From contig JARDVH010000193.1 of the NCBI GenBank assembly GCA_030324005.1, positions 86,991,550-87,055,549 of the forward strand: DNA of 64,000 nucleotides. The letters run 5' to 3'. Positions 2,246-64,000 of the stretch are shown piece after piece; the stretch's first letter is position 1; every line of letters begins with the position of its first letter. A program made the position numbers and the translations under genes. The DNA is from Negaprion brevirostris. Its lineage: Eukaryota. A model generated the notes under the pieces. It saw only the letters and a program-made list of their open reading frames with translations. It was not told the origin of the DNA and made no database searches.

Positions 2246-3129
2246 CTTCCCATTTGAAATGGAAAAGACATTCTACAGAGCTGGGTTGCTGTTCCCAAGA
2301 ACTGAGGCATGCTTCTAAGCAGGCCACCTCTCACCCACACTCTTTCCCAAAATTGTGCTGTGGCTTGCCAAAACAGAGCCTTCCCCATTTATGTCCCTCA
2401 GAGACCAAAATATTATGGAATTGGGGTTGGCAGGCTGGGGTTTCGGAAGTTGGAAATGGACTTCACTCACATTTTCTGAGCCAGAGATGAAAATCCAGAC
2501 CAATGGCTCTTGGAATTACATAAAACGCATTTATATTGTTTTTGAGGAGGTTAGGTTAGAAAGTTCAAGAGAAAGAGCAAGGGTGGAGGATGGGGCCAGT
2601 GGGAGGGAACTTAATTTGCATGAACAGGGTGAACACAAGTCCCTCCAAAGTGTTTTTTTCTCTTTAGATTATTTAAAGGAATGTGAGCATGTCCATGGAT
2701 AAGTTAGACACAGTTTCCCAGTGAACATACTGTGCATTAATGGAAGAGAGGGCACCCATCTGGCTGCACACCAGGCCTGAATCAAGTGATATTGTGCACC
2801 GATCAAAGACAGCTATCCCAGACCAACCAGTGATCCGTGGCGCTGGGATAGTGTTAGAGGGAATTCTGAGTTAGAGGTGTTCAGTCATAATCCCACAGAT
2901 GTTAGCTTCATACCATTGGTTCCTCAACCTGGCACATACACCCAAATGTCTGAACCTACGGTTCCACTTGAATTGTGCAGGATTTGTTGCCCATTCCTAA
3001 CTGCTTTTGGAAAGATGGAGGTGTGTTACCTTCTTGAACCATTGCAGATGAGGTAGCGGAGACCGTGTTGTTACAAAAGGAGTTCCACGATTTTGAACCA
3101 ACAACAATGCAATGACAATCTGGAGTTAG

Positions 3130-13857: not shown

Positions 13858-14570
13858 GGGCAGAATTTTTAAGAACCTGAGAAGGTGAGGGGACGAATGC
13901 TGAAAACAATAGGGAAATCTTATTGGTCCTGTTCCATGGCATGTTCCCACCTCCATGGAATTCTGCAGGAGGTGGGGTGACGACAGGACTGGTTGCGTGT
14001 AGCTGCAGTCAAATAAGTCAGTTAAAGACTTAATTAAGAGACCTGTCCTCATGCCAGCTGGATTTTCCCACCAATGTGCTGGGTGCCCATCAAACCAGGG
14101 GATTGCTATGAAATGGGGGCAATCTCTCACTGGCAGGTCAGATAGCCATTGAAATTGAAATGGTCCATTCAATGGGAAAAACACTGCACTATTAAATGTC
14201 CATAACTGCAGCAGTGCCGTCGAGTGAGGAGCTTTCTTCTTTTTGTCTGACGGCCCTATTGCTTTTGATCTTTTTCATATCCTCCATTTGAGGCTGGAAA
14301 CTGGGAACAAAGGTGCCCTTGCACAACCCCACATACTTCAGCAGGGACTAATCTTACACTGGGATTGACAATCTTTCAGTGCTGCAGGGCTTTGTATTGG
14401 CAATCCAGACTCCGGAGCCCACCAGCCTTCATTCGATGGTCCCGATTGCAGACACTTAACTTGCTGCCTCCTCCAGAACCTACCCCGGGGTCCTGCTCCT
14501 GCCATTTCTGGGATGTGATCTGATTTCATCCTGACAGAGAGTTTGGAACCAAGGAACAAAAATTCTGTCC
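13858..14570. mobile_element. PIF/Harbinger-type non-autonomous element
   Basis: Terminal inverted repeats GGGCAGAATTTTT and AAAAATTCTGTCC. Confidence 0.6.
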
Positions 14571-15547
14571 TGTTGGTCTTAAAGTGTTGACTGTTAACTT
14601 TAAATACCGATGGACAACATTAGGTGGCCCAGTATTGAAGCCTCAAAGGAGTAAATATACGCAAAAAATCTTTGAATTCTGTAAACAATATAATGGAGTT
14701 CATTATCAACAAGGCTTTACATAAATACCCATTTGCTCACCATCTGATGGACTATTCATTTTAGCCACTATACAGAATAAATGAAATGAGCTAATTCTAT
14801 TGCAAAACTTAATGTATGAACATTTAGTTATTGGCATGACACCAAACTTGCAATACTTGATACAAAGAGGTTTTTGGTTTGCACGCCACCAAGGTTTGAA
14901 GGTCAAGTTAACATCATGATGTTTGCAGGCGGATAAGTGGATTAATTCACATTTGTCAAATTGTTCCAGTTGACTTACCATGAATGGTTCATTTATTACA
15001 GCATGTGAAATGAATGCTGCTGTTCCTCAATGGAGTATCAAGCGGCAAGCATTTTTGCTGTATGCTTAAATGACATCTATCATGTGCTCCATGACTTCAA
15101 TCATGTAATTTATGCATTGTTAGAAAACATTGCGTTAGATTTGAAACAGGATTCCAAAATCTTAAGCCAGTAAGTTAAGAGGTGGAACATTGTGTTTGAA
15201 ATGGAAAGTACTTACTGGCACAATGAGTAAATGCCACAGGGGCCCAGCTTTCCATCATATTTTCTAGGTTGTACATGAAGCTGATGAGCTGGAACTACTG
15301 TGGTTAGTTTACTGGTGAATTAATTAGAATTAATTGATTGCAGAGTATCAAAAAAACTGGTTAATATCTACCAAAAGGTTGGTTCAGATATGAAATGGAC
15401 AATAGTAGCTGTAAACTACACATGAGTTCATGATTGTATGTACCTTTACACTTTTTGGTGCTTCTAAACATCTATCACTTCTCAACAGAATTCAAAAGTC
15501 TTCCCTTGTGTGTAATTAACATTGATGCATATCTGAGCTGGAATTAT

Positions 15548-15675
15548 GGCTGGAATTCTCCCATCCTGCCCGCCACTGGAATTTTAGCGGCAGGTTGTGG
15601 AGAATGTGAAATGCCATTGATGGTCAAGCATGAATTTCCGGCTTTTAGACCAGCACAGCCAGAAATATTTATCCA
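15548..15675. mobile_element. short (~130 bp) Harbinger-type MITE
   Basis: ggctggaattctcccatcctgcccgcca..ggaatt..ccattga. Same family as 24500-24626, 37420-37556 and 50223-50345. Confidence 0.6.
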
Positions 15676-15807
15676 CTGGCTTATTCCAACTGTTTCAGTA
15701 CTTTTCTTTACCAGGCTTTGCCCAGTTCTGTATCTGGGCTGGTCCAAATGTTAAATCTTCTAAATAGCAGCTCTGCCAGAATGTACCCTGGGTCTATTCC
15801 ATAATGA

Positions 15808-16040
15808 TGTGGTAATGATACACTTTCTCAGACTTCGTTTGAAACATTAAAGGTAAATCATTCATAAGAAAAGCTATACCTGGGGCCATCAGTCAGCATG
15901 GCTGCTGGTAGGTCCCTACATGGCTACTGCCTCAGAGCAGACTCCACCCCATGGGGTGTCTACTCACACTGCCCCAGTTGGTCCCCCAAGCCAGGTGACC
16001 CTCTTCTGTGGTGTTGCCCTTAAAGGGACAAATCATCACA
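15808..16040 (-). repeat. 3' LTR of copy A (~233 bp), preceded by the polypurine tract at 16041-16050
   Basis: Minus strand reads AAGGGAGGCA | TGTGATGATTTGTCCCTTTAAGGGCAACAC...GAAGTCTGAGAAAGTGTATCATTACCACA. Aligns along its length with 56859-57085. Confidence 0.8.
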
Positions 16041-16074
16041 TGCCTCCCTTATACAACCTTCCATAAGTTGCTCA

Positions 16075-16150
16075 ATCCTAAATTTTAACTATAAATTATA
16101 CAGATAAATCCTAAATTTTAACTATAAAATATACAGATAAATTATACAGA
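16075..16150. repeat. ~33-bp tandem duplication in the 3' UTR of copy A
   Basis: atcctaaattttaactataaa(t/a)tatacagataa occurs twice, plus a partial third unit. Confidence 0.9.
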
Positions 16151-16279
16151 TATACAAATAAATTTTAACATTAATTATATAGATAATTATAAATTGAGGC
16201 TTCAAGGGTTTTTCTGTTTTTTGTGAAGTGGTGTAATTCTGAGATGCTTCCATGGATTAACACTGACAGGACTTGCAAT

Positions 16280-16555
16280 AACAAGTACCTCTTCTTCTCT
16301 TCTGGCACAGGCAGTTCATTATTACTTGCTTCCACAGAGACATCAGTTATGTCTATGACAGTTTGTTCAGGCACTTCAATGCTTACAAGTTTGACAGCAT
16401 TTTTTGATGGCAACACTGACTGCTGGAGCGTATCTCTACGCCTTAAGTGATCGATATGCTTATAAACAACCAATCCCTCCATGTCTACTGGGTACGACAA
16501 GGGTGCAGTCTCATTCTGCAGATCTGACTTGATCCACCAGCAAATTTTTATGTTA
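16280..16555 (-). pseudogene. Gypsy integrase C-terminal tail (copy A)
   Basis: ORF 16171..16569 contains ETAPLSYPVDMEGLVVYKHIDHLRRR...VPEEKKRY, matching the Gypsy integrase C-terminal motif TGPLSYxV...RRHxDHLRRR...RRYP. Confidence 0.8.
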
Positions 16556-16774
16556 TGACAACATGTCATATTATGTACTTAATATGGGTTTATTATTAGC
16601 GTAACACTGTCCACTGATGAGATCTTAAAGCTTGCATGTTTAAACATAAACACTTTTTTGGAAGGCTTTATCTATGACAGTTCCAAATGTACTGTTAACA
16701 GTTTTTTTTTCACAGTCTCAGTCTGTCACGTGTGAAGAAATGGTCGTAGTACTCTGTTTCTGGGATTAGATAGT

Positions 16775-17853
16775 GGGTGGAATTCTCCCAAAAATATTTG
16801 TGTTTGTGTGAAAAGTGGAGTAATACACGCTGTTTTTTTCAATGGGAGTTCAGTGAAGAATCTCCCACACTCTGTGCACTGCAGAGGCCACCAGTATGAA
16901 TATTATTAAATTTCAGGGGACAGGGCCTAGTCCCGTTGGAGAGGCTGGAATCAGCACTCTGAGCGGGCCACTGTGCATGCCCCGATCTGTCAGTGGTGAG
17001 ATTGGTGCATGTGTAGTGGCCCTGCACTGCTGGCATCCCGATTGCTNNNNNNNNNNNNNNNNNNNNNNNNNNNNNNNNNNNNNNNNNNNNNNNNNNNNNN
17101 NNNNNNNNNNNNNNNNNNNNNNNNNNNNNNNNNNNNNNNNNNNNNNNNNNNNNNNNNNNNNNNNNNNNNNNNNNNNNNNNNNNNNNNNNNNNNNNNNNNN
17201 NNNNNNNNNNNNNNNNNNNNNNNNNNNNNNNNNNNNNNNCCCCCCGCAGTGCCAAACCCCCAGCAGGCTGAATGCTCCCTCACCCAGATCGTTGCTGTCC
17301 CTGCTTCCTCCATCGATCCCGATGCAGAGTTGCAGCAGGAACCCCCACCAATTGCGTCCTAGCCCTGCCCCCATCATGCCCATCTGCCCAAGCCCTGCCA
17401 CCATATTCCCTGTCCCTTGGCATTGCCCCATGCCCAATGGGTAGTACCAAGGTGTCCCCTGAACATTGGCACTTTGCCCATTGGGTAGTGCTGGGGGCCC
17501 AGGCTGGCACTGACAGGGTACCAATGCCCAGGGGGCACTCCTCCTCATTGTCTGACCCTCTGGAGGGCCCCAATTGCCCCACTTCACTCCGGCAGGGTCG
17601 GGCTGCTAGTTTCCTGCAAGTGAGGAGCTACTGTAATCCTCGCTGGAGTGAAGTACTCTGACAGGGTGGGAAATACTAGAGGGCCCAGAGAGTGTTCAGT
17701 CCCAGGCCCACTAATCAAATTTGAATTATATTAAAATGACTATTTAAATGATCTTTGCTGATTTCCAATGCTGATCTGATGGTTCTGGAAATCTGGCATT
17801 GGGAGATACTAGCATGAACCCTGCAAATTGGCTGATGCAAGAAACTCTCGGCC
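16775..17853. mobile_element. GC-rich ~1 kb Harbinger-type MITE nested in copy A
   Basis: Termini gggtggaattctccca ... aaactctcggcc. Flanks agt/agc. Homologous, in reverse orientation, to 55382-56383. Confidence 0.75.
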
Positions 17854-19420
17854 AGCATATCTTTCATTGACCATTTTATCATATTGGTTCTTGTGTTTTT
17901 TTATTAATGTGACCATTTCAGCAATCGTGGCCGCGATTCTCCCACTGCAACGTTTCTGTCGGGTCACGGTGGGAGACGTGTGCCTGTGGCCTTGAACAGG
18001 GATTTGTGCTTGCGCCAGAAACACATGCGCATCTCCCAGAGCCAGCGAACAGTCACTGGTTAGACCACACTGGAAACCAGCAGGAAGGCAGGTAAGTAAT
18101 TTAGATCTGTTTTAAATATGCGCATTAGGTCATTATCTGATCGAATCTCCAACCCCACCAGGAGTATCTCATTCTAGTGGGGATCAGACTAGCTTCTCAC
18201 ATTCGGGGAACTAGCGGGGTACGCTGCTGGAATGAAAGGGGTGAATTGAGGCCCCCCCAGGAGGTTGGGCATGGGGGGTGGTGCCCCTAGGCATGGGCAC
18301 CCTGGCAGTGCCAGCCTGTGCCCCCTGCCACTGCCCAGAAGGCATTGGGCAGTGCCAAGGGGGTGGGGTCTACTGTGCATGGGACCTAGCAGCAATTGGT
18401 GGGAGTGGGTGTCCTGCTGCCACTCTGCAGACAGGATCGATCTGGAATGGAGGGAAGGCAGCAATTGGGGCAGGTTGGGGGGGCTNNNNNNNNNNNNNNN
18501 NNNNNNNNNNNNNNNNNNNNNNNNNNNNNNNNNNNNNNNNNNNNNNNNNNNNNNNNNNNNNNNNNNNNNNNNNNNNNNNNNNNNNNNNNNNNNNNNNNNN
18601 NNNNNNNNNNNNNNNNNNNNNNNNNNNNNNNNNNNNNNNNNNNNNNNNNNNNNNNNNNNNNNNNNNNNNNNNNNNNNNNNNNNNNNNNNNNNNNNNNNNN
18701 NNNNNNNNNNNNNNNNNNNNNNNNNNNNNNNNNNNNNNNNNNNNNNNNNNNNNNNNNNNNNNNNNNNNNNNNNNNNNNNNNNNNNNNNNNNNNNNNNNNN
18801 NNNNNNNNNNNNNNNNNNNNNNNNNNNNNNNNNNNNNNNNNNNNNNNNNNNNNNNNNNNNNNNNNNNNNNNNNNNNNNNNNNNNNNNNNNNNNNNNNNNN
18901 NNNNNNNNNNNNNNNNNNNNNNNGATGGGCATGTAACGTCAATTTCTTACTCTGTCTGAATTGTTGATTCTGCTGTCAGTTTCGATGCATTACCTCTTCA
19001 GCTAATTTCTCATTGACAAGTTTCCCTTCTTCAACTCTTATTCTCCTGATTCAGTTCTTCACTGGACTTGTTCTTATTTTCTGGTTGCTTTTCATTCATT
19101 ATCTCTAATTTCTCCTTCTTCTTAATTTCATTTTGTCAATTTTTGCAACTTCTTTCTTCAAGTTTCCCTGTCAGCCATTTCATCATATTGTTTCAACGTC
19201 TACTCTGGACCTTTATTTCTTCTTGCTGAAACCTTTCTATGTTCAATTGTTACTAACTTTTGAAGCCTTTAGTTTCTACATTTCTCCAGAGGAGAGTCCA
19301 TCATACCCTTAGTGGACACGTACATTTCACAAGTATAACCTATTGTAATTGTTGATCAGGTCTGTCTCCAGTAGAATGTTTACTTGTTTCCATTTTGCAA
19401 CTCACTTGTTGTCCTTCAAT
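17854..19420 (-). pseudogene. SYCP1: intronless SYCP1-derived coiled-coil segment in copy A (interrupted by a MITE and a gap)
   Basis: Minus translations KQPENKNKSSEELNQENK, EKLAEEV and IAEMVTLIKKHKNQYDKMVNE match vertebrate SYCP1 KQVENKNKYIEELQQENK, ENLLEEVEK and CQHKIAEMVALMEKHKHQYDKIIEE, in the same order. Confidence 0.8.
17929..18923. mobile_element. GC-rich ~1 kb Harbinger-type MITE nested in the SYCP1-like part; right end in gap
   Basis: Starts GGCCGCGATTCTCCC and is collinear with 55382-55990 (gaaaccagcaggaaggcaggtaag, gggcaccctggcagtgcca). Confidence 0.8.
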
Positions 19421-20626
19421 TGGTCATTTAGTCTCTTTGATTGCCCCTGTTCTGAGATCTTTAAATGCTCTTCAGGTGTCCTTCACTGCGTCCTTCTGGG
19501 GTCTTTTATTACCCTCCTTATGGGGTCTTTAAGTGCCCTTCTTCTGGGTCACCTTTTGCCAACTTTCTGAGGTCTTAGATTTTCTCCTAATAGAGGGTTT
19601 TTTTGCTCTCTTTGACTCCTGTAAGATCCCCCATCGAAGCTCTTTCTTGAAGCTTTCATTTCCTCCTCTAGGTCTTCTGTCGCTCAATCCTTGATGTATT
19701 CATTGCTTATGGACATTTTCTAAGGGTTGCCTTCTTTCCAGGGCTTCTCCAATTTTCCTGTTCATAGACTTTTGTTCCTTCTTTGGTTGCTGTTTTAATT
19801 ACAATATCACTTTAAATGTATTGCCACTTTAAGATGGTTATCTTTTATTTCATTGAACTGCCAGAGCTGCTGGCTCTCTCTGCGTTTTTCCCACGCTTTT
19901 AGAGTTGAGTTTTGGCTGCTCTTTTTATTTGAATTTTTAAAAATTCCGCTTTTACTGTTTGTGATCTGTGTTTTTTTTCTTCTGGCTACTTGGAGAGTCC
20001 TCTCTTTCTCTTTTTTGATGTGTCAGTCTTTTTTATCAACATCACTGGAACGCCAAGTTCCATCAGGCCCTTGTTTATATACTGGTTAACTTCTTTTGAA
20101 AATTGTTGAGCACGTCTCTTCTTTTCTACAAGTTCAGAACTGCTCTGTTTAAAGCCCAGCAGCACAGGGATTGCTGCTACTCAACCCCCACAAGCTCTTC
20201 TCTGATTGGGAACTTATCAATTTCAGCCTCTTTATTTTCCCGTGCTTTGGGATAGTTCACAGCAGCTACCTGGGGCATTCCCTTCTTTTTGACTTCAAGC
20301 CTGTTTTCTGTATTCTCTTTTCAAACAAAACTGTGCAGCAATTCTTTTAAAAAAAACTTAAGCTATATTTTCTTCTACTCATAAAGGCACAGCTCTCACT
20401 TCGCGGGGTTAGAGTCTCTTGATTTCTTTTTTTCTCTTTCTATATTTCTAAACTTTTAACTCCACCAGCCACTTCAGGTTTCTTCTGCATCTGTCCTTCA
20501 GAGTCTGGCAATATTTTAACATCTCAAGTGGGTCTATTCACCTAAAGAGGTATTCTGGTGAGTTAATTTTCTCAACCTTTGTTTTTATAGAGCACTGGCC
20601 CTTTTTTTGCTGTTAACGCATTCTGC

Positions 20627-20822
20627 NNNNNNNNNNNNNNNNNNNNNNNNNNNNNNNNNNNNNNNNNNNNNNNNNNNNNNNNNNNNNNNNNNNNNNNNNN
20701 NNNNNNNNNNNNNNNNNNNNNNNNNNGAGTGTGGAGATTCAGGTGAGGAGCTGAACTGACAGAACCATCTGGATTTAGATCAGTTTTCCTGCCAATTCAG
20801 CACTTTTGGGGGAATCACCCCC
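20627..20822. mobile_element. right end of a GC-rich MITE (rest in gap)
   Basis: cagttttcctgccaattcagcacttttgggggaatcaccc matches the ends at 56345-56383 and 63530-63580. Confidence 0.7.
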
Positions 20823-20824
20823 AC

Positions 20825-21050
20825 CACCCCTCCTCTTTTCTTGTCCCCATGACATCTTTGTTAAATTTCTCCTTAGTTCCCACGTATTCCTGACATTGAA
20901 TTTTGCTTCACCCACTCCACTCCTCTTAAACAGTATAAATCTATCATTTCTACCTCTCTAGCTCTGAAGAAGTCATACAGACTTGAAATATTAACTGTTT
21001 CTCTCCACAGATGCTGACAGACTTGCTGAGTTTTTCTGTTTTTATTTCTG
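20825..21050 (+). mobile_element. Penelope-like pLTR remnant with hammerhead core (20960-20996)
   Basis: gct CTGAAGA agtc-ataca-gact t GAAA ta TT aac, followed by tctctccacagatgctg.cagacttgctgag. Confidence 0.7.
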
Positions 21051-22489
21051 TGCATATCTAATCTGTTTGCCTTCCAATTCTTTTGCTATCAGAATGAACC
21101 TAGCACTTTGTTTCTTTTTACATAGCACTATTAATCTACTACATGACTATTTTATGTGATTTGTGTATTTGTACTGTCAGAATTCTCTACTCCTCTTTAC
21201 CAGCTGATTCTTATTTTCTCAGCTGTATGTGGCCTCCTTAATTCTTCCTACCAAAGTGGTTCTTTTGGAGGTTGCATCTATTGCTGGATGAACATGTGCC
21301 AAGATAAAACACTGGGCGATATTTACTATTGCCTCCTGTTGCAGCTTGACAGAACCCAGTGCAAAAGGCTGGCGTTTTGTTTTTTGGGGTGGAAGCCAGC
21401 CTGATAGGCCACTGGTGGGGGCAGACAACCCTGTTTCAGTGATCTGTGGGACATGGGGTTGCATTTTGTTGGCAGCAGCCTACTACTTGGTTGCTCTTTG
21501 GACTGTCAGCAGTCACTGAGAGCAGTAGCCCATCCCTAAGTCAATTGCTGAGGCAGCAACTCGCAGACTCAGCAGCATCACCATGTTCAGTGGCCATTGC
21601 TGGTAATGCACCTGAAAGAAGATAATACCGTGAGAGGCTGGTGCTTTCTCATCCAGATAAATGGGACCTTGGGGCACCATTGACAGTCAGACAAACCCCG
21701 TCAGGGGCAGAAGGGGAATTGGTGAAGGCACGCAACACCTTTACATTGGGTGCAACAGTTGTTATCTGGAGACCCTCTGTGGGGGTGGGGGGGTGAAGAA
21801 TGACAAGTAGTAGGAGCATCCCAGTCTTGAGAAGTCACGAGAGTTTACTTAGCAGTTCCCACATGTTGGAAACAACACCTCACCTGACCCTACCATTCCC
21901 CACAGTCCTGCTGGCTAAATAGACAGTGGGAAGGGGACTTTAATTGGCCATTAAGTTCTCAGTTAGACTAAGGGTAATGGGTCATCCACCATTTCCCCCA
22001 TTGCTGGAGGACGCCAGGCATTCCACCACTCCCCTTTCGTTTGCCATCCTGAGGCACACTGCACATTCCAGTTCATCCCCAAAGGGCCACTAAAATTCAA
22101 TTCTTTGATTACCACCAGCAGGACTACTGAAGTCAATGATCTGAGCTGAACAGATTTATTCAGCAAGTGGAAGAATTTATCCGTGGTCTTTTCAGTGAAT
22201 CAAATCTCCTCGTACAGGAACGCTCACTCTGATGTTGATCTGATTTGTATTATCAACTGTGTATCATATACTCTTTGGAATGGGGATGGAGTGCTACATA
22301 TAACAACTGTTGGCCTCATCAAATAGAAAAGTTGCCTTTACCTCAACTTGTTTTCCAATCATCCATTATTCCTGTGAACAGACAAAATCACATCAGAAAA
22401 CCCATCAAAGCCCTTAAAGATAGTATCAAACTTAAAGAAAAAAACATTAATCGGAGTAGGAGCTGAAAATATTTCGAGATATTGACAGG

Positions 22490-23485
22490 TGCTCAGGACC
22501 TGATCTAGCAATCATGTTGGCTGTGGACACAACTCCCGTAATGTCCACGAAATCTCACGAGTGGTCAAAAATGGGATTAGTGCTGGTGAGATCTAGCTTG
22601 AAATCTCCCTCACTCCCCCCCACTTCCACCAGTGGTGTAATCAGGGCTTGAACCTTGTTTTTATGCTTTTGTATATTTATGTTGTTGCATGATTACTTTA
22701 AGAGTTGATCACATAATTTCACAGGCATGAGCTCTTAGAATAAAGCTGTTTTGTGTTGGTTTGAATGTGTGCACGTGCAAACGGCATCTTTTCTTTAAAA
22801 CCCACAACACCTAACATAGTTCAGACATTATACATATATATCTTAATTAATTATCACATAATTGCTGCTTTTGGCATCATAGCATCTGCCCAAAATGTTT
22901 GCTTTCCCCCCAGAGGTGTGATGTCATGCCAGCGTGAATCACTACCAGTTTTCAAAAATGAAAAGCAGTTATGATAACCATGTGTGTAGGTGACTGTAGC
23001 CACTGGGGTTGAGGGACTTGCCTATGGATTTCCCCTGGGCACTGCCAAGGCCACTGCTGTGGGGCACTGTGGTGGGGGGGTTACCCTTGTTTATTTGGGG
23101 AAGTTTCCCCTTCTGTGCACAGGGGGACGATTCCCTTTAACCATGGTTGGCGTCCTCTTCTGTTGTGGGAGTTGGAGGTGTTCCCTTATCCAATGGCGAT
23201 CGGTCCTGATGTGAGTGGAGGAGGGGCCCACATACATGGTGGGGGGAGGGTTCCAATGCTTGTTAGATGGGGGTGTAGCCTTAAATATAACTTTGAGATC
23301 AGGGCATTCTTCGGCCCCACCTCTCCAGTTGGCTGTGTGATCCTCACCAGCACTGTAAAATTGCAGAGTGCCATTAAATCATTTGGGAAAAGGCAGCAGT
23401 GAAGCTGGTGAGTTTCACACAGTTTTTCTCACCTGACTTGTACATTGCCTGACCTGTTTGAGATGCCATGTGAATGATTTTGGCT
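22490..23485. mobile_element. old GC-rich Harbinger-type element with an internal unrelated insert
   Basis: Family motifs ccctgggcactgccaagg, cactgtaaaattgcagagtg and ttttctcacc. Termini are eroded. Confidence 0.45.
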
Positions 23486-43699: not shown

Positions 43700-44367
43700 T
43701 CCATCCTGATATACACCGATAGCCGTTACGTGTTTGGGGTAATTCATGACTATATGATAGCTTGGGCTTAATGGGGATACATAACTTCCTCAGGGGGGCA
43801 TGTACAGCATGAAAATTGCATAAGGGAGTTGGTGGAGGTAGCCAAAGCACCAACGGAAGCTGCAGTAATCAACATAAGTACACATAAAAAGATACAGACA
43901 CCACAGCAGTGGGGCAATGATTATGTAGACAGGGCAGCCAAAACCCTCACAGCACAAACTCCGAGACTGCAGGGGGAAGATGTAAAATCAGTTGCTGCAG
44001 ACGAGCACAATTCAGATAGCGTAGGGAAAGTGCAAGTAGCAGCAGAAGGGGAAGAGACAATGGGAAGGAAGAAAGAGGGAGCTGTAAAATATTCAGATAA
44101 CATCTGGAGAAAGGATGGGCATATAGTAGCACCCGCAGTGTATAAGGCAAACCTTAATGAAAGTTTACCATGGGCTAATACGCATCGGGAGAGATAAAAT
44201 GATTAAGCAAATGAGCAGGTGTTGGTGGTAGAAGGGCATGGGGAGAGACATAGCCAGACACTGCCAGCAATGTGTGGTCTGTGCCCAGTGTGAACCTGGG
44301 AAAGCCCCCAAGATAAAGCTGAGGTATCAGCCCAGACCATAGGGGCAATGGCAGCAATTGCAGATAG
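43700..44367 (+). pseudogene. endogenous retrovirus pol fragment (RNase H plus integrase HHCC zinc finger)
   Basis: IYTDSRYVFGVIHDYMIAWA*WGYITSSGGHVQH...AAVINISTHKK...GNDYVDRAAK, then across frameshifts YHGLxHxGRDKM...HCQQCVVCAQCEPGK...GQWQQLQI. Confidence 0.9.
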
Positions 44368-53838: not shown

Positions 53839-54104
53839 CTTTGTCTCAGAAGTTGCAATGTTTGAAATATAAGGAATATTTTAAACTTTTGCAAAGTCAA
53901 TGATTATTTAATTGCAAAAAACTCCTGAAATATGACAGTGAGCATGTCACTTTGATAGGGATCTCAAGGTTAATTCCATCATTTATTGGTATCAATTTGC
54001 ACTGGAATATTAAATGGTTCAGTGTGAATCCTTGGTGCACTTGATGCATTTAAGGCAATTTGTCATGATTGTAGGCAATACATAATATAATTCGGGTCAA
54101 GTTA

Positions 54105-54480
54105 CATATAAGAACATAACATAAGAACATAAGAAATAGGAGCAGGAGTAGGCCATGTAGCCCTTCGAGCCTGCCCCGCCATNNNNNNNNNNNNNNNNNN
54201 NNNNNNNNNNNNNNNNNNNNNNNNNNNNNNNNNNNNNNNNNNNNNNNNNNNNNNNNNNNNNNNNNNNNNNNNNNNNNNNNNNATCTGCGCCACCAGCTCA
54301 TCCACTTTATTCCGAATGCTTCGCGCATTCAGATAAAGTGCCTTCATCCCAGCCTTCACTTGTACCCTATTTGCCATTACGCCACCAACCCTACTCGCAC
54401 TCCCTACTCCCTTTATTATTGGGACATTCTCCTCAGCCTCTAACTTCACCTGTACCCTCTCCTTAACTTTAGGCCCCGTA
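54105..54480 (-). mobile_element. young CR1: ORF2 start and 3' tail either side of a 100-N gap
   Basis: MKALYLNARSIRNKVDELVAQ (endonuclease start) lies right of the gap. The tail with (tgttctta)n repeats lies left of it. Confidence 0.88.
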
Positions 54481-55017
54481 ATATATATATGCATTTGTCT
54501 GTTGGGGGAGCAACTTTCATGGCATGAAATTGCCAGGCAATGACCACCTCTAACAATCGAAGCGAATTTAACCCTTTCCCCTTGATACTACCATTACTGA
54601 ACACCCCCTCCCCCCCACCATAAATATTCAGGGATTTACTATTGACCAGAAACTTATAACGGTCAGTCATATAAGCACTGTGGCTACAAAAGCAGCTCTG
54701 AGGCCGGAAATTCTGTAAAAAGTAGCTCATCTCCTCACTCCCCAAAGCCTGTCCACCATCTCTAAGGCACAAATATAAATATGAAAAATACTCTCCACTT
54801 GTCTGGATGAATACAGCTCCAACGACACTCAAAAGGTTCAACGTCACCCAGGACAAAGCAACCCATTTGATTGGCAATCCACCCACCACCTTCAACATCC
54901 ACTTCCCCTATCGCTGCTATACAGTGTGTACCATCTACTGCAGCAAGTCACCAAATCTCCTTCAACAGTGTTTTCCAAATGTGTGACTTCTATCTAGAAA
55001 TTTGAACTGTGCCACTG

Positions 55018-55322
55018 TAGGCAGCTCAGTGGTTAGCATTGCTGCCTCACAGCACCAGGGACCCAGATTAAATTCCCAACTTGGGTCACCGTATGTGTGG
55101 AGTTTGCACATTCTCCCCATGTCTGCATGGGTNNNNNNNNNNNNNNNNNNNNNNNNNNNNNNNNNNNNNNNNNNNNNNNNNNNNNNNNNNNNNNNNNNNN
55201 NNNNNNNNNNNNNNNNNNNNNNNNNNNNNNNNNNNNNNNNNNNNNNNNNNNNNNNNNNNNNNNNNNNNNNNNNNNNNNNNNNNNNNNNNNNNNNNNNNNN
55301 NNNNNNNNNNNNNNNNNNNNNN
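55018..55322 (+). mobile_element. HE1 SINE (3' part in gap)
   Basis: gctcagtggttagcattgctgcctcacagcaccagggaccc. Confidence 0.85.
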
Positions 55323-55381
55323 AACAGAACTACCTGCAAGTTCCTTTAAGAGTCACGCACACCATCCTGACCTGCAACTAT

Positions 55382-56383
55382 GGCCGTGATTCTCCCATCG
55401 CGACCCACAACTTTTCTGGCTGGTCGCAGTGGGAGATGCGCGTCACCGGCCTTGTTCTAGGATCTGCGCATGCACTGGGAAAGCATGCACATCTCCCAGA
55501 GATGGTGAACAGTCGCCGGTCAGACTATGCAAGAAACCAGCAGGAAGGCAGGTAAGCAGTTTGAATCTGTTTTAAATGTATTTTAAGTATATTTAGCAGT
55601 TAATTATTAGGAATTTTCCAGTCCTGATTGAATCTCCCACCCTGCCAGGAGTATTTCATTCTGGTGGGGTTTACACTAGCTCCCCACATTTGGGGAACTA
55701 ACGGGAAACCCCACAAGAATGAAGGGGGGCAATCGGGGCCCCCCAGGGGTTTGGGTGGTAGGGAGTGGTCCCACGGGTATGGGCACCCTGGCAGTGCCAA
55801 CTTGTGCCCCCAGCATTGCCCAAGGGGCATTTTGGCACTGCCCATCAGGCATTGGCAGTGTCAAAGAGGCAGGGGCTCTTGTGGGTGAATCCTAGGGGCA
55901 ATTAGTGGGGTTGGGGGGGTCCCGCTGCCAGTTAGCAGACTGGATCGGTCTGGGGTAGAGGGATGGCAGTGATTGGGGCGGTCTGGTTTGTGGGGGGGGA
56001 GGGGGAGTCGCCACTGCTTGGGGGGAGTGGGCTGTGCTCCGGGATGGGGGAGGTGTCAGGCCTGCCCGGAATTGTTGTGGAGTCTGTGATGAGGCTGTGG
56101 TGTTGGGGGGGGGAGGGGTGCTGGAGGGGCAGCACTGCGAGGGTCCCGGGCTGGCCAGCGGTCGAGAAGTCTGACAAATCAGGACCATTGCTCATGCGCA
56201 GAGTTCCGGAACTGTCAGACTCCAGTGCGAGTAGGCCGGTCCCCCTGGGTTTTCAATGAGATTCACGATTGGGACCCCTGCAATGCAAGAGTGGGGAGAC
56301 TCAGGTGAGAAACTGGACTGAGAAAAGAGTTGGGATTTAGAACAGTTTTCCTGCCAATTTAGCACTTTGGGTGAATTACGGCC
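55382..56383. mobile_element. complete ~1.0 kb GC-rich PIF/Harbinger MITE with TAT TSD
   Basis: TIRs GGCCGTGATTC and GAATTACGGCC (10/11 match). TAT at 55379-55381 and 56384-56386. The host LINE is continuous across the insertion. Confidence 0.9.
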
Positions 56384-56858
56384 TATATTGCCATTCCTTC
56401 TCCTTCATTGGGTCAAGGTTCTGGCATTCCCTCCCTAACTTGATGTTGGGTGTGCCATCATCATGTTATTCAAGAGAGCAACTGACCACCAGCTTCACAA
56501 GGGCAATAAGGATTGGGTAACAAATACTAACCTTGCTAGTGATGCTCACATCCCATGAATGAATTAAAACAAAGTAACCAATCTGAAAGGAATTGTGTAG
56601 GTTCCTTCTTCATCCACTGGGTAGCAGTATTGTAACACTTTAAATCTCTGTTTTGGTCTTGCTGGTTACACAATAGGGTGCAGCCTTAGAACCTGTGAAA
56701 AGGAATGCATCTCTCAATAATCCACTTAGTGCTGCTGAACCACAAACTGGATTATGACGATTGCCATCTGGTGGTGGGATAGAAATAGTAGCTCATAATC
56801 TGAAGTAAAAACAGCAGTGTGACTTGGTAGGGAACTGGTATTGATAGATGTATGGGAA

Positions 56859-57085
56859 TGTGGTGATTGACACTTTAATGGCAACACAGCTGAAAAGGGT
56901 GACTAGCTTGGGGGTGCAATTAGGAATGAGAGTGGGTAATCACCCCTGGGTGTGAAATCTGCTCCTGGGCAGAGAATATGAAGGGAGCTGGGACAGTCAT
57001 ATGGGTTGCTGGCCTCTCTACGGTTTTCCTAATTAACAAATATCTTTTGTGTTTCTAGTGAAGGCTGGGGAAGTGCATCATTACA
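56859..57085 (+). repeat. 5' LTR of copy B
   Basis: TGTGGTGATTGACACTTTAATGGCAACAC...GAAGGCTGGGGAAGTGCATCATTACA; homologous to 15808-16040 (minus). Confidence 0.8.
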
Positions 57086-57087
57086 TC

Positions 57088-57100
57088 TGGCGATGAAGAT
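57088..57100 (+). promoter_or_regulatory. primer-binding site, tRNA-Ser(GCT)-type
   Basis: TGGCGATGAAGAT, 2 nt after the LTR CA, matches TGGCGACGAGGAT (complement of the tRNA-Ser(GCT) 3' end) at 11 of 13 positions. Confidence 0.8.
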
Positions 57101-57179
57101 ACAATTATGAAACTGCCTCTGGCCCAACACCTGTGAGAATCTTGTTTTAATCGAAGTCTGAGAAACAGTACTCAGCCGA

Positions 57180-57660
57180 GTGCCTCTCTTTGGGTGAATC
57201 CCATTTGAGATGTTGTGATATTGCCAGGCCCTGAGTAATGGAAAATCAAGCTGCATGTTTGATAGAGAGAGAGCATTAAAAGACCACTGGGCCAGAATCC
57301 ACAGAAGAATGAGCAAAATGCAGAAAAGTACCTCGACTCACATTGTTGACTAGAGGCATGGTGGTCCGTGACACTCAGTGCATTGGAGAGATGGAGGGAC
57401 AGACACAAAACAAACCTAGATCAAGAACTGTGCTTTAACGCTAAAAATAGGAACAAAGAGTTGCTGCAAAGGTTTGTTTTGAAGGGAAAAAGAGAACATA
57501 GGAAGTAATGTTTTGGATTGAAGAATTTCCCCCAGGAGTTGTATTAGAAAGTCAAGAGGCTTAGATGAACAAGCTCCTTTTTGGAGCACAGCCTGCAGGG
57601 GTTCCATGGCAGCAATTGTTGCATTTGTAGACTTCAAACAGAGAAATTCCAACATTTTTT
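57180..57660 (+). pseudogene. degenerate Gypsy gag (counterpart in copy A at ~20130-20553)
   Basis: Broken frames give (M)PLFG..PFE, ..W..Y.ERM-like, TLLT.ACGP-like, DTK..QEL, LLQRF...RE and DFKQ, following the fish/shark Gypsy gag pattern MPLFGxxDPF..DWxQYxER..LLTACG..DTKxFxEL..QRxRF..LDFK. Confidence 0.6.
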
Positions 57661-57999
57661 GTGAAAAAGAGAAATCCTCGGCCTATCTGAAAAGAAGAAA
57701 TTAAAAATCTTTAACATAAGCAATGCTCCTGAATGGACCACGCTGGATCTTCCAGTGAAATTGATGGACACATCATAAAAGAAAATACAACAGATTCTCC
57801 AGGCAGAAATCACTAAAAGGGCTTTCTTTCAGTAAAATTGTTTTAAAAGTTCAAAAAAAAAGCAAAACTTCAAAAGCTCGGAAGAACGCAGAAAGTTGTC
57901 AGCTGCTAAAAAGTTCAATGAAAAATAAGTGAAAGTCTTAAAGTAATTCATTCAAAGTGAGTAATATATTTAATGTGGTAATGCACCTAAAGTAGCAAT

Positions 58000-58340
58000 G
58001 GACAGGAAAATTGGAGAAGACCCCAGATAAAGACCAATTCTCAAAAAAGGCCCATAGGCAATGAAGACCTCAAGGAAAAGGCAATGCAAGACTTCAGAGG
58101 AAGCACTGAAAATCTTAAAGAAGAGGCAAGGCCAGGCCTCAGAGCAGGCAATGCAGACATCAAGAAAGAGGCAACAGAAGATCTCAAAGAAGAGACAGCT
58201 AAGACCCATAAAAGTGGGCACTGTGAGACCCCAGATGGAGGGCACTGAGTCCCAAAGGGCAATTAAAGACACCAGAAGGTTAGGCAATTCAGGACCACAG
58301 AAGGAAGGCATTGAAAGATCCCAGAAAGCAAGCAATATAA
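58000..58340 (+). repeat. degenerate ~21-24-bp tandem repeat (~13 units); counterpart at 19430-19770 minus
   Basis: Units such as aatgaagacctcaaggaaaaggc, aatgcagacatcaagaaagaggc and aattaaagacaccagaaggttaggc. Confidence 0.8.
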
Positions 58341-58349
58341 GATCCCACG

Positions 58350-59060
58350 AGAAGAACGACAAGGAAATTGCAGAATGGAAACAAGTCAACACTTCATTGG
58401 AGGCAGACCTGATGAAATGTAAAGCCAAAAAGGGTTTGCTTGAAGTTAACACAAGTAAAATTGAAGATTCCATTTGAAAATGCATATGTCCAGCAAGAAC
58501 ATGACGGATTCACCTGGGAAGAAGTACAAATGAAAGACTTCAAAAGAAATTAGAAACTATTCAACATAACAAGGAATCAACAAAAAGAGTTAAAGCTCCA
58601 GAGAAAACAAAATATCAAGATGAAATGACTGACAGCAAGCTTGAAAAAAGAGTTGCAAAAATTTACAAGATTAATTAAGGAGTACTTAATGAGAGAATGT
58701 AGAATTAGCTGAACTCCATGAAAAGCAACTCAAAAATAAGAACAAATCCAGTGAAGAATTGAATCAGGAGAATAAAAATTTTGAGAAAAAAGAATTGATC
58801 ATGAGAAATTAATTGAAGAGGTAGAAAACATTGAATCAACTGTTCAGAGTCAACTATTCAGACAGAGAAAGAAACAAATTATGTGCCAGAACAAGATTCC
58901 TGAAATTGTCGCAACAATAAAAAAAGCACAAGAACCAATATGATAAAATGGTTAATGAAAAAGATGCTAAATTGAAATGCTGGAAAGAGAAGAAATTTTA
59001 TCTCATGATCTAAGTACCAGAAACAGAGTACTACAATATTCCTTCACATGTGACAGTTGA
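58350..59060 (+). pseudogene. SYCP1: intronless SYCP1-derived coiled-coil segment in copy B
   Basis: KQLKNKNKSSEELNQENK, KRIDHEKLIEEVENIE and MCQNKIPEIVATI/KKHKNQYDKMVNEKDAKL match SYCP1 KQVENKNKYIEELQQENK, KKISEENLLEEVEK and RCQHKIAEMVALMEKHKHQYDKIIEERDSEL. Frameshifts and stops are present. Confidence 0.82.
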
Positions 59061-59409
59061 AGATTGTGAAAGAACTGTCAAGACATAAGATTTTATTATA
59101 TCGTGATGACATATATCTACATGCAGTATAATATAAGGTGCTCAACAGAGCAAGGATCGATGTGAGATTGGAGAGTGGCACCATTCACAGAATGATGAAC
59201 GTAGTCAGATAGTCAGAGAATAATTTAGGAGAGAACTCAGTAACCAGCATACCTGCATGGAACAGCTCCATGCAAGATTACATTTTGAACTGTACACAGT
59301 TAAAACCTACCAAAAACACTTCATGTTTAACAAATTGCAGGATCTCATCAATGAGCCATGACCACTGCAAGTATAAAAAACACACATTAAGAACATAATA
59401 TGACATGGT

Positions 59410-59530
59410 GTCATAATATGAAACTTTGATAATGGGTCAAGTTGGATCCCCAGAATTATTGCCACTGAGACTGGACCCCTGTCATACCCAGTAGACATGG
59501 AGGGATGGATCATTCGTAAATATGTAAAAA
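59410..59530 (+). pseudogene. Gypsy integrase C-terminal tail (copy B); continues at 61305-61520
   Basis: NFDNGSSWIPRIIATETGPLSYPVDMEGWIIRKYV. 61305-61520 matches 16230-16445 (ccagcagtcagt.ttgccatcaa, aactgcctgtgccagaagag, ggaagcatctcaga). Confidence 0.85.
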
Positions 59531-59531
59531 G

Positions 59532-59848
59532 TTGTTCTTGGGATTTGGGTGTTCTTGGCTAGGCCTGCACTTATTGCCCATCCCTGAGGACAGTTAAGAA
59601 TCCACCACTTTGCTGTGTATATGGAATCACATGTAAGCCAGACCAGCTAGGGATGATAGATTTCATTTGTTAAAGGACATTAGTGAATCAGATGGGTTTT
59701 TAATGATAATGATTTCATGGTCATCATTGGACTTTTAATTCCAGCTATTTATTGAATTCAAATTTCACCATCTGCCATGGGGGATTTCATTCCAGGCCTC
59801 CAGAACATTGCCCTGGATTACTAGTCCAGCAACAATGCCACGACATCA
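59532..59848 (-). mobile_element. tRNA-derived SINE, family 2
   Basis: Same core as 28032-28392. Confidence 0.85.
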
Positions 59849-59859
59849 CTGTCTCTTTT

Positions 59860-60830
59860 ATCCTGATACACTTGCCTGCACCCTCCTGTGTAGTTATGTC
59901 TTCCATTTTGTGCCACTGTGAAGATATCCTCATGTGGAGGATGACCTTCATCACCCTTTTCCAGTTCCTGCCCATCTAAGTCTTCATCATCCAAGGAAGT
60001 TGGAGCCTCCTGCATATCTCTTTCTGGCAAGTGATTTTCCCCTTGTACCCTGCACAACCTGGTGATTCAACAGACACAATGATGCGGAATACCCTCTGTG
60101 AAGAGTATAGCAATGTCCCACTTAAGTCGTTCAAACACCAGGAGTATGTCTTCAGGATGCCAATGGTTTGCTCAATGATGAACCTTGACACAGAGTGTGT
60201 CACTTGTACCTCTCCTCTGAGGCACCTTAAGGATGACACATGGTGTAATAAACCATCTCTTCAGCAAGTACCCCTTGCCACCCAGGAGCCAACCCTGTAC
60301 ATACTGTGGTCCTTTGAATATCTGAGGCACCTGGGAGTGATTCAGGATCTAGGAGTCATGGGAACTCCCAGAGTACCTGGCACAGACATGCATGATCTGC
60401 TTCTGATAATGGCAGATCAGCTCAATGTTAGGAGAGTGGAACCCATTAAAGTTAATAAAGATCAAAGCTATTGCCAAGGAGTTCTTAAAGCAACATCTGT
60501 ATTCTCAGTTGTACCCTGCACTTTGGTGAAGCATGAAATCACTACAAATGCCAGACATCTCTCAGCTTGACTGGCTTTATCCCTTGTGAACTTTACATAA
60601 TGATGAACCTTACTGTATCCGTCACCTCCATTATAGATTTATGTGTTGCAGCCTGAGAGATGCTGCATCAGTTCCCTGTGGAAATAATTATGTATGACGG
60701 TGAGCTTTAGGGGCACTTTCAGAGATAGCCTCTTATTCCATGCAGCATATGCTTCTCTCATAGAATTTGGTAGATATTTGGATATGTGTGGCACTGCCAT
60801 CTACAAATAGGAAAGGTGTTTTCGGGCAAC
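59860..60830 (-). pseudogene. PIF/Harbinger (HARBI1-like) DDE transposase fossil; element extends to ~61300
   Basis: Minus strand gives FTKVQGTTENTDVALRTP...FINFNGFHSPNIELICHYQKQIMHVCARYSGSSHDS*IL and HSVSRFIIEQTIGILKTYSWCLNDLSGTLLYSSQRVFRIIV. Confidence 0.9.
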
Positions 60831-61519
60831 TCTTGGTAGTGCTAGTCACCCCTGTGGGATGGATCTAACTTCCTCAGCCTCTGGATCTTCCTGGGACTCC
60901 TCTGGACCATGCTCCTCAGGCTGAGACTCTTTTCTAAGCTGTGCTTGAGGTGTTAGACCCTTCTTTGCCTCCTTAGTCTGAGCACTGCCACCAAGAAGGT
61001 AGCACTGGATGCAATCTCCATTCTGCAATCCTCTTTCTTCCTGTGGACAGATAGATCCAAGCAATTAATATGGATTAGTTAGTCATTCTGATTCTGACTT
61101 CTCAATAAAGCGTTCATGACTTTTGTCAACTGAGACTTCATTTTCATTTTGAGAACACAAGTGTGAGGGTTCCTCCTGAAAGGGCCCCTAGAAAAGCCTC
61201 TTCCCATATGCATCAGATTGCTCCTTTAGAGATTTCCTTACAGTTTCATTTTTAAACTGATAAACTGCATCATTGAAGTGGGGTTTCAAGTTGATGGCTC
61301 TATTCTTCAGAAGTAGCGGGAGATTCCAGCAGTCAGTCTTGCCATCAAGAAACATTTATGAACCTGAAAGTGCCAAAGTACCTGATCAACCTGTAATGGA
61401 CGTAACTGATTTTCTCCATGGAAGCAAGTAGTAATTAACTGCCTGTGCCAGAAGAGGTACCTGTTATTGCAGTCCTGTAATCTGAGATGCTGTGGAAGCA
61501 TCTCAGACTACAGAATTAC

Positions 61520-62180
61520 ACTGGTTAGCCATGGTAATAGATAAGCAACAATCTGTCATATCAATAAAGAATTGGAATGGGTCAACTTCAATGGTGTGAG
61601 AACTGATCAGGCACAGGTAAATGGAATCAAAGACTGGGAGGTAAAATTATAACTGAACAATGGGATGTTTTTAAAGTTATAGTTCAGGCAGAATAAAAGA
61701 AAGGAGTCACAGAATGGGGGATGATGGTAGGGTAAGTAAACCTAGAGGTCCTTGAATGAAGAAAGGGATTGGGATTAAAGTGAAGCAAAAAAAAGATGCA
61801 GATGGTACATGTTAGATTTTAAGTGCAATTAAGAACTAGGTTGAATGTAGAAGGTTCATGGGGTGAAGTGAAAAAGCAAATAAGAATGGCAAAGGCAGAG
61901 TATGGAGACTGGCAGCTAACATAAAGGGGAATCAAAATTGGCTTATAAATAGAAAAGGTTGAAGAAGAGTGAGGCTGATTAGAAACCTAAAAGGGGATTG
62001 ACACATGGAGTCAGCATGGTTTAGGGACTAAATGAATACTTTGCATATACCTTATCAAGGAAGAAGATAGCACCTAAGGGTAAAAGGCAAGAGAAAGGAA
62101 CAAGTGAGTTGCTCTTGCAGAGCACTGATACAGAATTGGCAGGCTGAATGTCTGTACTACAACAATTCTATGACTCTATG
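61520..62180 (+). mobile_element. old CR1 ORF2 linker fragments plus tail
   Basis: EVKKQIRMAKAEY..LAANIKGN and LNEYFA motifs; tail aattctatgactctatga. Confidence 0.7.
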
Positions 62181-62606
62181 AAGCTTGGGCTGTTTTAATT
62201 GATGAGGCTGATTCAAATAATCTTCTGTTGTTTCTTGCCTGATGCTTCAAAGACATCAGGCCCAACTGGTGGGAATGGAAATGGTGGTGAGAACATGATG
62301 CCAGCATAAACCCACCATTATGAGGCATGTCATGGAGCAAGCTCTTAGAGGGAAGATTTAAGCAGTGAATAATCGTTACAGGTTTTCACATTTGCAAGGA
62401 AAATGTGTTCTGGATCTCCCATGCAGTTGGAATATAATTTTCCTTGATTAGCTAGCCTAACTTGACTGTTTAGAAAGATTAATCAATTTAGAATTATTAT
62501 TCCTTCTACAGTGAAAATGTCAAGTAATGTTGATATTTTACTTTAAATCTATTACATTTCTGTCTTTATCCAATTCTGTTGAAAGGTCTGAAATGTTAAT
62601 CAATTA

Positions 62607-63580: not shown

Positions 63581-64000
63581 GATCCTCAGGGCATCGATCA
63601 TATCCTGCTGAGAATTTACAGCATTTTCTGTTTTAATCTATGTTGAAGCTTTATTAATTTCACAGTACAAGAGGAATTTGATTTTTCTCGTACCTGACGC
63701 TATTCTATTCTTTGTAATGCAACACATTTTTCTTCACTCTGCAACTGTTAAATAAGGAATGATTTTGCCATATAATTTTATTCTTTTAACTATTCTGTTC
63801 TAATGCCCAATCAGTGCACTGTAACAGCTTTGGATACTTATTCATTATCCTAAGGGAAGATATGGGTGGTCAAGCAATTTTAAAATTATTACAAAATTAT
63901 GACAGGCCCATGAGCTGAGTGATTGATGGGATTTTGCTGTTGAACAACACTTGCTTTATCAAATAATATTTTCAAACTCCTAACGACAAACTGTAAGTTG

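Follow-up and report, generated by a model that had tools for sequence, protein, structure and literature searches.

A dispersed, non-autonomous Gypsy LTR family of Negaprion brevirostris carries a spliced and circularly permuted SYCP1 cargo, apparently copied from a circular RNA

Among the closest described systems are the mouse circRFWD2 pseudogenes, of which 33 copies carry the circRNA junction and nine more lack it; MMERVK10C-int is marked for them in the figure legends, and the mechanism by which circRNA-derived pseudogenes arise was called mysterious (Dong et al. 2016, PMC4897178). A second precedent is LTR-mediated retroposition, in which, according to the main text of Tan et al. 2016 (PMC5131818), host RNA replaces the internal ORFs between parts of an LTR element, the cargo can be partial, and the product can serve as a non-autonomous element in further cycles; the cases presented there are young retrocopies, and the words 'circular' and 'circRNA' are absent from that main text. 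The shark family described here shares with circRFWD2 a non-colinear exon-exon junction, many copies apparently derived from one circle, association with an LTR element and a few adenosines instead of a poly(A) tail. It differs in host and carrier (shark and Gypsy-type versus mouse and ERV), in number (76 copies aligned and about 10^3 candidates listed, versus 33–42), in showing a complete LTR-PBS-cargo-PPT-LTR arrangement with target-site duplications (TSDs), and in a cargo of about one full turn of the circle within a second LTR shell; moreover, the circRFWD2 study began from expressed circRNAs, whereas the shark circle is a putative one, read from genomic copies. Relative to the young LTR-mediated retrocopies, the shark family is ancient, permuted and amplified family-wide. 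By its motifs it presumably belongs to the Mag clade of Gypsy/Ty3 elements, with which it shares TG..CA LTRs, a tRNA primer-binding site (PBS), a polypurine tract (PPT), a 5-bp TSD and relatives with RT/RNase H before the integrase; unlike typical members of that clade, the copies studied here lack the pol core and retain only about 12 gag codons and an integrase tail.

Two copies, A and B, lie in the window, by which we mean the whole 64,000-nucleotide stretch that was analysed. Their parts are given below, with LTR1 denoting the LTR of the present element (family 1), LTR2 that of a putative first carrier (family 2), and host positions counted along the candidate SYCP1 circle.

15811–20584, minus strand: copy A, whole element (fitting the 15808–20600 of an earlier, sequence-only reading).
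15811–16040, minus: 3′ LTR of copy A, an LTR1 with a TG start and a decayed terminal CA (K2P 0.29 to the 5′ LTR of copy B).
16041–16052, minus: PPT, in a position matching the purine tract of other 3′ LTRs.
16053–16240, minus: 3′ untranslated region with AT-rich tandem repeats.
16240–16545, minus: decayed C-terminal tail of a Gypsy integrase; the same tail stands directly behind Integrase_H2C2/rve matches in L132 and L136.
16564–16714, minus: internal LTR2 remnant, the 3′ half of the putative first carrier's LTR.
16776–17852, unstranded: nested insertion 1, a dispersed GC-rich, MITE-like repeat of ~1.08 kb.
17853–17926, minus: SYCP1 piece, host positions 652–725.
17930–18927, unstranded: nested insertion 2, a dispersed repeat of ~1.0 kb, also at 55374–55986 and 62682–63150.
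18928–19224, minus: intronless SYCP1 pieces, host positions 189–415 and 528–644, with a shared 130–131-nt deletion between them.
19225–20517, minus: interior from the putative first carrier (family 2), a 5′ region and degenerate 23/45-nt repeats, free of Pfam matches.
20518–20584, minus: leader end and gag start; PBS and 5′ LTR lost.
56859–~61523, plus strand: copy B, whole element.
56859–57085, plus: 5′ LTR of copy B, an LTR1 with TG...CA ends.
57088–57100, plus: PBS, 2 mismatches in 13 nt to the 3′ end of this genome's tRNA-Ser(GCT).
57101–57217, plus: leader and ~12 gag codons of the presumably Mag-like outer shell, 72% identical to the region behind the PBS of a pol-bearing relative (L167+L139).
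57218–58527, plus: interior from family 2, with degenerate 23/45-nt repeats at about 57950–58350.
58528–58991, plus: SYCP1 pieces, host positions 90–142, 179–418 and 552–747, spanning six host exon junctions.
58992–59030, plus: what is left of the host exon captured first (about positions 51–85), downstream of later exons, a trace of circular permutation.
59103–59405, plus: internal LTR2, with 7 nt behind it that resemble the beginning of the family-2 PBS.
59421–59525, plus: integrase tail, part 1.
59526–61304, unstranded: nested insertion of 1.78 kb, a dispersed short repeat and a Harbinger-type transposase remnant (minus strand).
61305–61523, plus: integrase tail, part 2; PPT and 3′ LTR lost.

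Copies A and B are colinear, inverted homologues that are 65–73% identical, with matching blocks at 20584–20460/57149–57267, 20239–18943/57547–58874 (65%), 17929–17854/58892–58968, 16771–16705/59008–59074, 16696–16460/59274–59519 and 16447–16223/61305–61521, and with the 3′ end of A (16065–15812) aligning to the 5′ end of B (56839–57084). These colinear blocks confirm the common order of gag, repeat, SYCP1 and integrase tail that the sequence-only reading had proposed, the 5′ LTR and PBS coming from copy B and the PPT and 3′ LTR from copy A; a second LTR of either copy was not found in the window or in the 7,951 bp beyond it. The 'gag' label holds for the ~12 codons of the gag start, and a Pfam search of both copies in six frames found no gag, pol or SCP-1, its sole match being a Harbinger-type DDE_Tnp_4 domain inside the 1.78-kb insertion of copy B. 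Of the nested insertions that had been named, this Harbinger and an accompanying dispersed short repeat (23 of 167 loci) stand in copy B, as do two insertions in copy A, both of them dispersed (13/167 and 8/167 loci); no clear terminal inverted repeats were found on the latter, leaving 'MITE' unproven. The 3′ end of copy B was presumed from a motif to hold a CR1, a label to which Pfam and a comparison with the 167 loci gave no match. Rfam, run over the window, returned only an rRNA fragment, outside copies A and B.

Both copies were confirmed to belong to a non-autonomous Gypsy LTR family that is dispersed in the genome: the alignment comprised 76 copies, and searches listed about 700–1,300 candidates, bearing out the high genome-wide copy number suspected from the window. 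The family has the anatomy of a mobile element, as had been claimed. Its LTRs end in TG...CA and form terminal direct repeats, which differ by a K2P of 0.19–0.26 in the four family-1 copies where this divergence, suggested as a check, was determined; a tRNA-Ser(GCT) PBS with at most 4 mismatches in 13 nt stands behind 12 of 14 5′ LTRs and 0 of 18 3′ LTRs, and a PPT precedes the 3′ LTR. A TSD of 4–6 bp had been anticipated; among nine complete copies (A and B each lack one end), a 5-bp TSD is exact in two and has at most one mismatch in four, against 4 of 72 control pairs, while a good TSD is absent in five. The tree of 65 copies is star-shaped, with a median end branch of 0.12. The integrase tail was identified as the C-terminal part of a Gypsy integrase via pol-bearing loci in the same genome, with RT_RNaseH matches upstream of the tail in relatives L165 and L167, and with matches to H2C2 and rve in L132 and L136; most of these lie under the Pfam curated cut-offs, for which we cite decay. 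One relative with both pol and LTR1 was seen. Protein searches with the tail gave no homologues among 51 candidates, and a search of representatives returned four unrelated repeat proteins. The family is unreported in the non-subscription literature found on SYCP1, on shark and elasmobranch retrotransposons and on circRNA retrocopies.

The SYCP1 similarity of the cargo is real, as seen by tblastn with catshark SYCP1 and by 77–81% nucleotide identity to this genome's own SYCP1 exons. The cargo is spliced, with host junctions 7, 8 and 4 crossed in 38, 37 and 35 of 39 copies, respectively, and with one weak, distant match among 24 intron flanks. It is also permuted: relatives with fewer deletions show the 11th and last host exon joined exactly to the first, a continuation found in four of the five LTR-borne copies whose cargo extends to the end of exon 11 (exact in L081, at the same point with one substitution in L089, and with 4–5-nt gaps in L099 and L100; the junction of L088 is unreadable), whereas the LTR-less retrocopy L101 has a normal, colinear junction. 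In family 1, an exon-1 remnant lies downstream in 42 of 58 copies, versus 0 of 58 shuffled controls. The break coincides with two host splice sites, a donor and an acceptor that are separated by 137 kb in the gene. In L081 the agreement is exact to the base, and contigs of three organisms bridge the junction of this copy, which excludes an assembly error. No LTR-borne copy aligns past position 926 into exon 12, upstream exons having been checked at the protein level; the capture starts at about positions 80–98 and ends at 85, and the five to six host bases of positions 80–85 stand at both insert ends. The exon 11-to-1 joint is apparently what marks the cargo as a copy, of about one turn, of a back-spliced circular RNA. 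The sequence-only reading had missed this permutation at an exact back-splice junction.

The family has a two-shell anatomy, and LTR2 occurs on both ends in L085, L088, L099 and L100. The SYCP1 cargo appears to have entered another LTR element first, and the present shell to have closed round that element's interior and LTR at a later stage. The family-2 PBS resembles tRNA-Leu(CAG) poorly (7–10 mismatches in 18 ungapped positions), and the 5′ interior of family 2 may be gag-like. The two-shell chimerism, with the LTR of another family enclosed, had also escaped earlier notice.

We consider it probable that A and B were inserted independently and long ago, as copies of a non-autonomous, presumably Mag-like Gypsy family built in two steps around a cargo of circular SYCP1 RNA. 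In a shark germ cell, family 2 would have co-packaged a back-spliced circle of 11 middle SYCP1 exons (about 925 nt); reverse transcriptase would have switched templates onto this circle inside its first exon, travelled roughly one full turn, past the back-splice junction, and then switched back, the single turn possibly reflecting removal of the template behind the enzyme by RNase H. Following a 45-nt deletion, the family-2 interior and 3′ LTR would have been placed within another Gypsy element (LTR1, tRNA-Ser PBS), between its leader/gag start and integrase tail, either by recombination or by nested insertion and deletion. Family 1, with further deletions of 130 and 230 nt, would then have multiplied in a burst, reaching hundreds of copies or about a thousand, probably moved in trans by pol-bearing relatives.

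An identical exact junction would also be produced if about one unit had been captured from a linear mRNA, made by an ancient tandem duplication of the 11 exons or by trans-splicing. Catshark SYCP1 isoforms (P0002, P0004 and P0005) do carry a tandem repeat of a 35-aa exon right before the block, which, at the level of these proteins, shows that SYCP1 is subject to exon duplication or odd splicing. Nonetheless, we regard a linear source as unlikely: exon 1 is single-copy in the 200 kb of the host gene examined, none of nine chondrichthyan SYCP1 proteins repeats the 11-exon block, the similarly diverged LTR-less retrocopy is colinear, and, had the template been linear, the near-exact capture of one unit would have to be put down to chance. 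The same splice-site break makes it very improbable that a linear fragment was captured and later rearranged within the element by a segment swap or several template switches, with no circle involved, since random switches would seldom hit both donor and acceptor; the family does have a history of deletions and recombination, and multi-switch chimeras are described in the main text of Tan et al. 2016 (PMC5131818).

Two further readings concern the copies themselves. Local hopping, which the sequence-only reading had offered as one option, or an ancient local inverted duplication during the burst would fit the 36 kb between A and B, their weak sister grouping in a 17-row protein tree (77/82) and an AU p of 0.46, which neither establishes nor rejects that the two are sisters. 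Against this, their distance of 0.181 is close to the medians of 0.19, they rank 22nd (A) and 13th (B) of 65 as mutual neighbours, and by simple arithmetic, assuming 1,000 copies in 2.69 Gb, chance alone would place a neighbour within 41 kb of ~3% of copies. The flanks of A and B, compared over 3–4.5 kb, share just short matches, namely one dispersed repeat of 92 bp and a match of 31 bp seen in both orientations, in line with the unrelated flanks noted earlier; the comparison has little power, as the end present in one copy is missing from the other. A local origin is therefore improbable, hopping is unsupported, and separate old insertions rather than a recent segmental duplication are supported; the family-level conclusions would be the same either way. 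It is very improbable that the SYCP1 coiled coil was retained as a translated helper protein, for example in germ-line localisation or meiotic interference. The 45-nt deletion preserves the frame and the pairwise dN/dS of A and B is 0.34 (101 codons), but the frame is disrupted by the two deletions, of 130 and 230 nt, that family-1 copies have in common, the family-wide pairwise dN/dS of 0.60 equals that of a neutral simulation (0.53–0.72), and copies have a median of three stops in the host frame. For family 1 this reading is largely refuted; the cargo evolved neutrally, as a passenger and not a maintained protein.

In the dating tree (17 rows, with four family-1 rows left out), capture after the host/catshark split is disfavoured but not rejected (AU p=0.10). 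On the same tree, capture predating the split from sawshark was rejected (AU p=0.003). Returning to the circular-RNA origin, we tentatively raise a fuller version: on the branch ancestral to this shark and the catsharks, a Gypsy element would have packaged a meiotic SYCP1 circle, copied it for exactly one turn and multiplied it to ~1,000 copies. The family would then be a fossil from which a back-splicing event can be dated, probably to more than 100 million years ago by the age of the node, and the same circle may still be made in shark gonads.

The family preserves a whole carrier around a permuted cargo, with the colinear, LTR-less SYCP1 retrocopy as an internal contrast, and points to template switching by LTR elements as a route to circRNA retrocopies that is now testable. 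With this family, a phenomenon described for mammals and ERVs is extended to sharks and Gypsy elements, and a back-splice event can be given a date. The inflation of SYCP1-like annotations that had been feared was not seen in two insensitive searches, one with nine protein hits, all of 530–1003 aa and apparently real SYCP1, the other with no SYCP1-like proteins of 45–146 aa; in practice, hundreds of SYCP1-like decoys can mislead gene searches and read mapping in shark genomes.

The SYCP1-carrying LTR family in this shark genome is real, mobile and old: its SYCP1 cargo is spliced, permuted and one turn in length within complete LTR elements, and the family is built of two shells, dispersed with target-site duplications (TSDs) and decaying neutrally. 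A probable circular origin of the cargo was missing from the sequence-only reading.

The window (G000:C193:86991550-87055549 of a 2.69-Gb genome) contains the following features:

15811-20584, minus strand: copy A of the SYCP1-Gypsy chimera
56859-~61523, plus strand: copy B of the chimera
59880-61304: Harbinger-type transposase remnant nested in B, with 60% matches in 3/167 loci
2858-2985, minus strand: LSU rRNA fragment (78.9 bits)
43772-44197, plus strand: open frame similar to the RNase H part of a retrovirus, perhaps a piece of an endogenous retrovirus

Contig C143 carries the true SYCP1 gene, of which we placed 12 exons within 200 kb and read the edges, inferring six masked-gap bases from the catshark protein; host and catshark SYCP1 are 84-85% identical across the captured block, which marks the host as a shark. 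The copies span the junctions of the spliced exons (38/39 at junction 7, 37/39 at junction 8 and 35/39 at junction 4), and the 24 intron flanks gave a single weak, distant match. Along the 11 captured middle exons, the cargo runs from about position 80-98 of the first exon through exon 11 and then, where exon 12 would be expected, returns to the first exon (positions 1-85). This join, which links a donor and an acceptor separated by 137 kb in the host gene, is base-exact in locus L081, carries one substitution in L089 and has 4-5-nt gaps in L099 and L100, while L088 runs to the end of exon 11 and is unreadable beyond. The L081 junction is spanned by contigs of three coded organisms, X5 (0 differences), X1 (22 differences over 798 bases) and X3 (a 426-base record with 25 differences plus 5 gaps); because all three bridge it, the junction is real and predates their split. 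A decayed colinear retrocopy covering the 3' portion of the SYCP1 mRNA (L101, G000:C31:39579087-39582686) has the ordinary exon 11-12 junction, and a search of it for LTR1 or LTR2 parts found none.

The window's subfamily has fixed-place deletions of 45, 130 and 230 nt, the last of which takes out the exon 11/exon 1 junction itself. A downstream exon-1 remnant is retained in 42/58 junction-deleted copies, B among them, versus 0/58 shuffled controls; A has an insertion at this site, and its remnant scores 21 against a cut-off of 24. Near the gene itself, a 133-aa open frame, presumably lamin/intermediate-filament-like, shares its strand with an early true SYCP1 exon and lies ~450 bp upstream of it (L053:2109-2510, minus; G000:C143 near 37.396 Mb). 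In catshark SYCP1 isoforms P0002, P0004 and P0005, a 35-aa exon is in tandem duplicate right before the circle-forming block.

Family 1, which includes A and B, is bounded by LTR1, a repeat that starts with TG and ends with CA. A match to the 3' end of the same genome's tRNA-Ser(GCT), with at most 4 mismatches, lies behind 12/14 5' LTRs versus 0/18 3' LTRs, which are preceded by a purine tract. Two LTR1 variants, with and without a duplicated first 10-bp unit, occur (starts in L031, L042, L082, L084, L090 and others), and L039 has an extra inverted LTR1 ~0.8 kb outside the 5' LTR of a complete copy. Domain matches identify the element's tail as the terminal part of a Gypsy integrase, in agreement with the earlier label: the same tail sits behind Integrase_H2C2 and rve matches in L132 and L136, the latter terminated by LTR1, and RNase H matches lie upstream of it in L165 and L167. 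These heavily decayed, pol-bearing loci (L165-L167 with L132, L136 and L139) are Gypsy relatives of the outer shell, and the first 114 bases behind B's LTR match the leader of L167+L139 at 72%.

In L085, L088, L099 and L100 (family 2), the cargo is flanked on both sides by LTR2, a distinct repeat (about 270-300 bp) that has a purine tract of its own and a primer-binding site (PBS) that is Leu-like but matches poorly. In family 1, the space separating the LTR1 leader from the integrase tail is taken up by the interior of family 2 plus one LTR2. In many family-1 copies the inner LTR2 is followed by 7 bases resembling the start of family 2's PBS, a possible trace of recombination in which a reverse-transcription intermediate or a tandem took part; a nested insertion combined with a deletion would account for it too. 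The deletion states, none in L099, the 45-nt deletion in L088 and all three in family 1, order the family's history.

We propose that a germ-line circRNA was co-packaged with the element and that reverse transcription would have switched template onto the circle and later left it, along the lines modelled by Tan et al. 2016 (PMC5131818), with RNase H perhaps holding copying to one turn and the family probably mobilised in trans. The cargo could also have come from a linear mRNA if the exon block had been duplicated in the distant past, which we consider unlikely since the first exon occurs only once in 200 kb of the host gene. Rearrangement inside the element is more improbable still. We give equally little credence to a functional cargo, as family-1 dN/dS between copies (0.60) falls within the 0.53-0.72 of neutral simulations.

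Capture from a circRNA would not be a new kind of event, because pseudogenes of mouse circRFWD2 (33-42, with MMERVK10C-int sequence marked beside them) are known, their mechanism being left open (Dong et al. 2016, PMC4897178). What sets the shark family apart is its carrier, its scale, its age and the anatomy it has preserved, and we found no published account of it in the literature, repeat databases lying outside the search.

Searches returned candidate numbers, which are not copy counts. A 701-bp piece of B gave 709 first-look candidates, 40 of which were scored and yielded 41 matches (74-81% identity, window excluded) on many contigs; the SCP-1 family gave 349 (with 57 matches), catshark SYCP1 1,009 (with 47) and the tail of A 1,270, with 150/150 scored being matches and further parts of the element in 22/29 non-self tail loci. 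TSDs of 5 bases were exact in 2/9 complete copies and within one mismatch in 4/9, versus 4/72 mismatched control pairs, and LTR pairs of four copies diverge by K2P 0.19-0.26; the proposed mobility thus stands. One copy (L014:850-2412) has its SYCP1/LTR2 part duplicated in inverted orientation.

From an alignment of 76 element copies and one other retrocopy, the DNA tree of 65 copies (at least 300 aligned bases each; bootstrap not settled) is a star with a median end branch of 0.12. Median distances are 0.196 between copies and 0.152 to the host. The copies share 0/6 host-derived and 0/5 catshark-derived residues, have 6/10 host-plus-catshark states and retain the older state at 3. With batoid rooting, the AU test rejects a capture older than the sawshark split (p=0.003); one younger than the host/catshark split is disfavoured, not rejected (p=0.10). 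Going by node ages, the capture would probably be above 100 million years old.

Sensitive BLAST of 14001-23000 against 54001-64000 bore out the homology claimed for A and B, with inverted colinear blocks from 20584/57149 to 16223/61521 at 65-87% identity; the far end of A (16065-15812) also matches the near end of B (56839-57084), and the element therefore lies on the minus strand in A and the plus strand in B. One 227-bp segment is common to the start of B and the end of A. The 'gag' reported in both is present, reduced to ~12 codons. Their distance (0.181) is ordinary, ranking 22 and 13 of 65 among copies; sisterhood is not rejected in the 65-copy DNA tree (p=0.46), is weak in one small protein tree and absent from another. 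The flanks, noted earlier as looking unrelated, share short repeats alone, a comparison limited by each copy being without the end that the other has. Independent insertion of A and B is the simplest reading.
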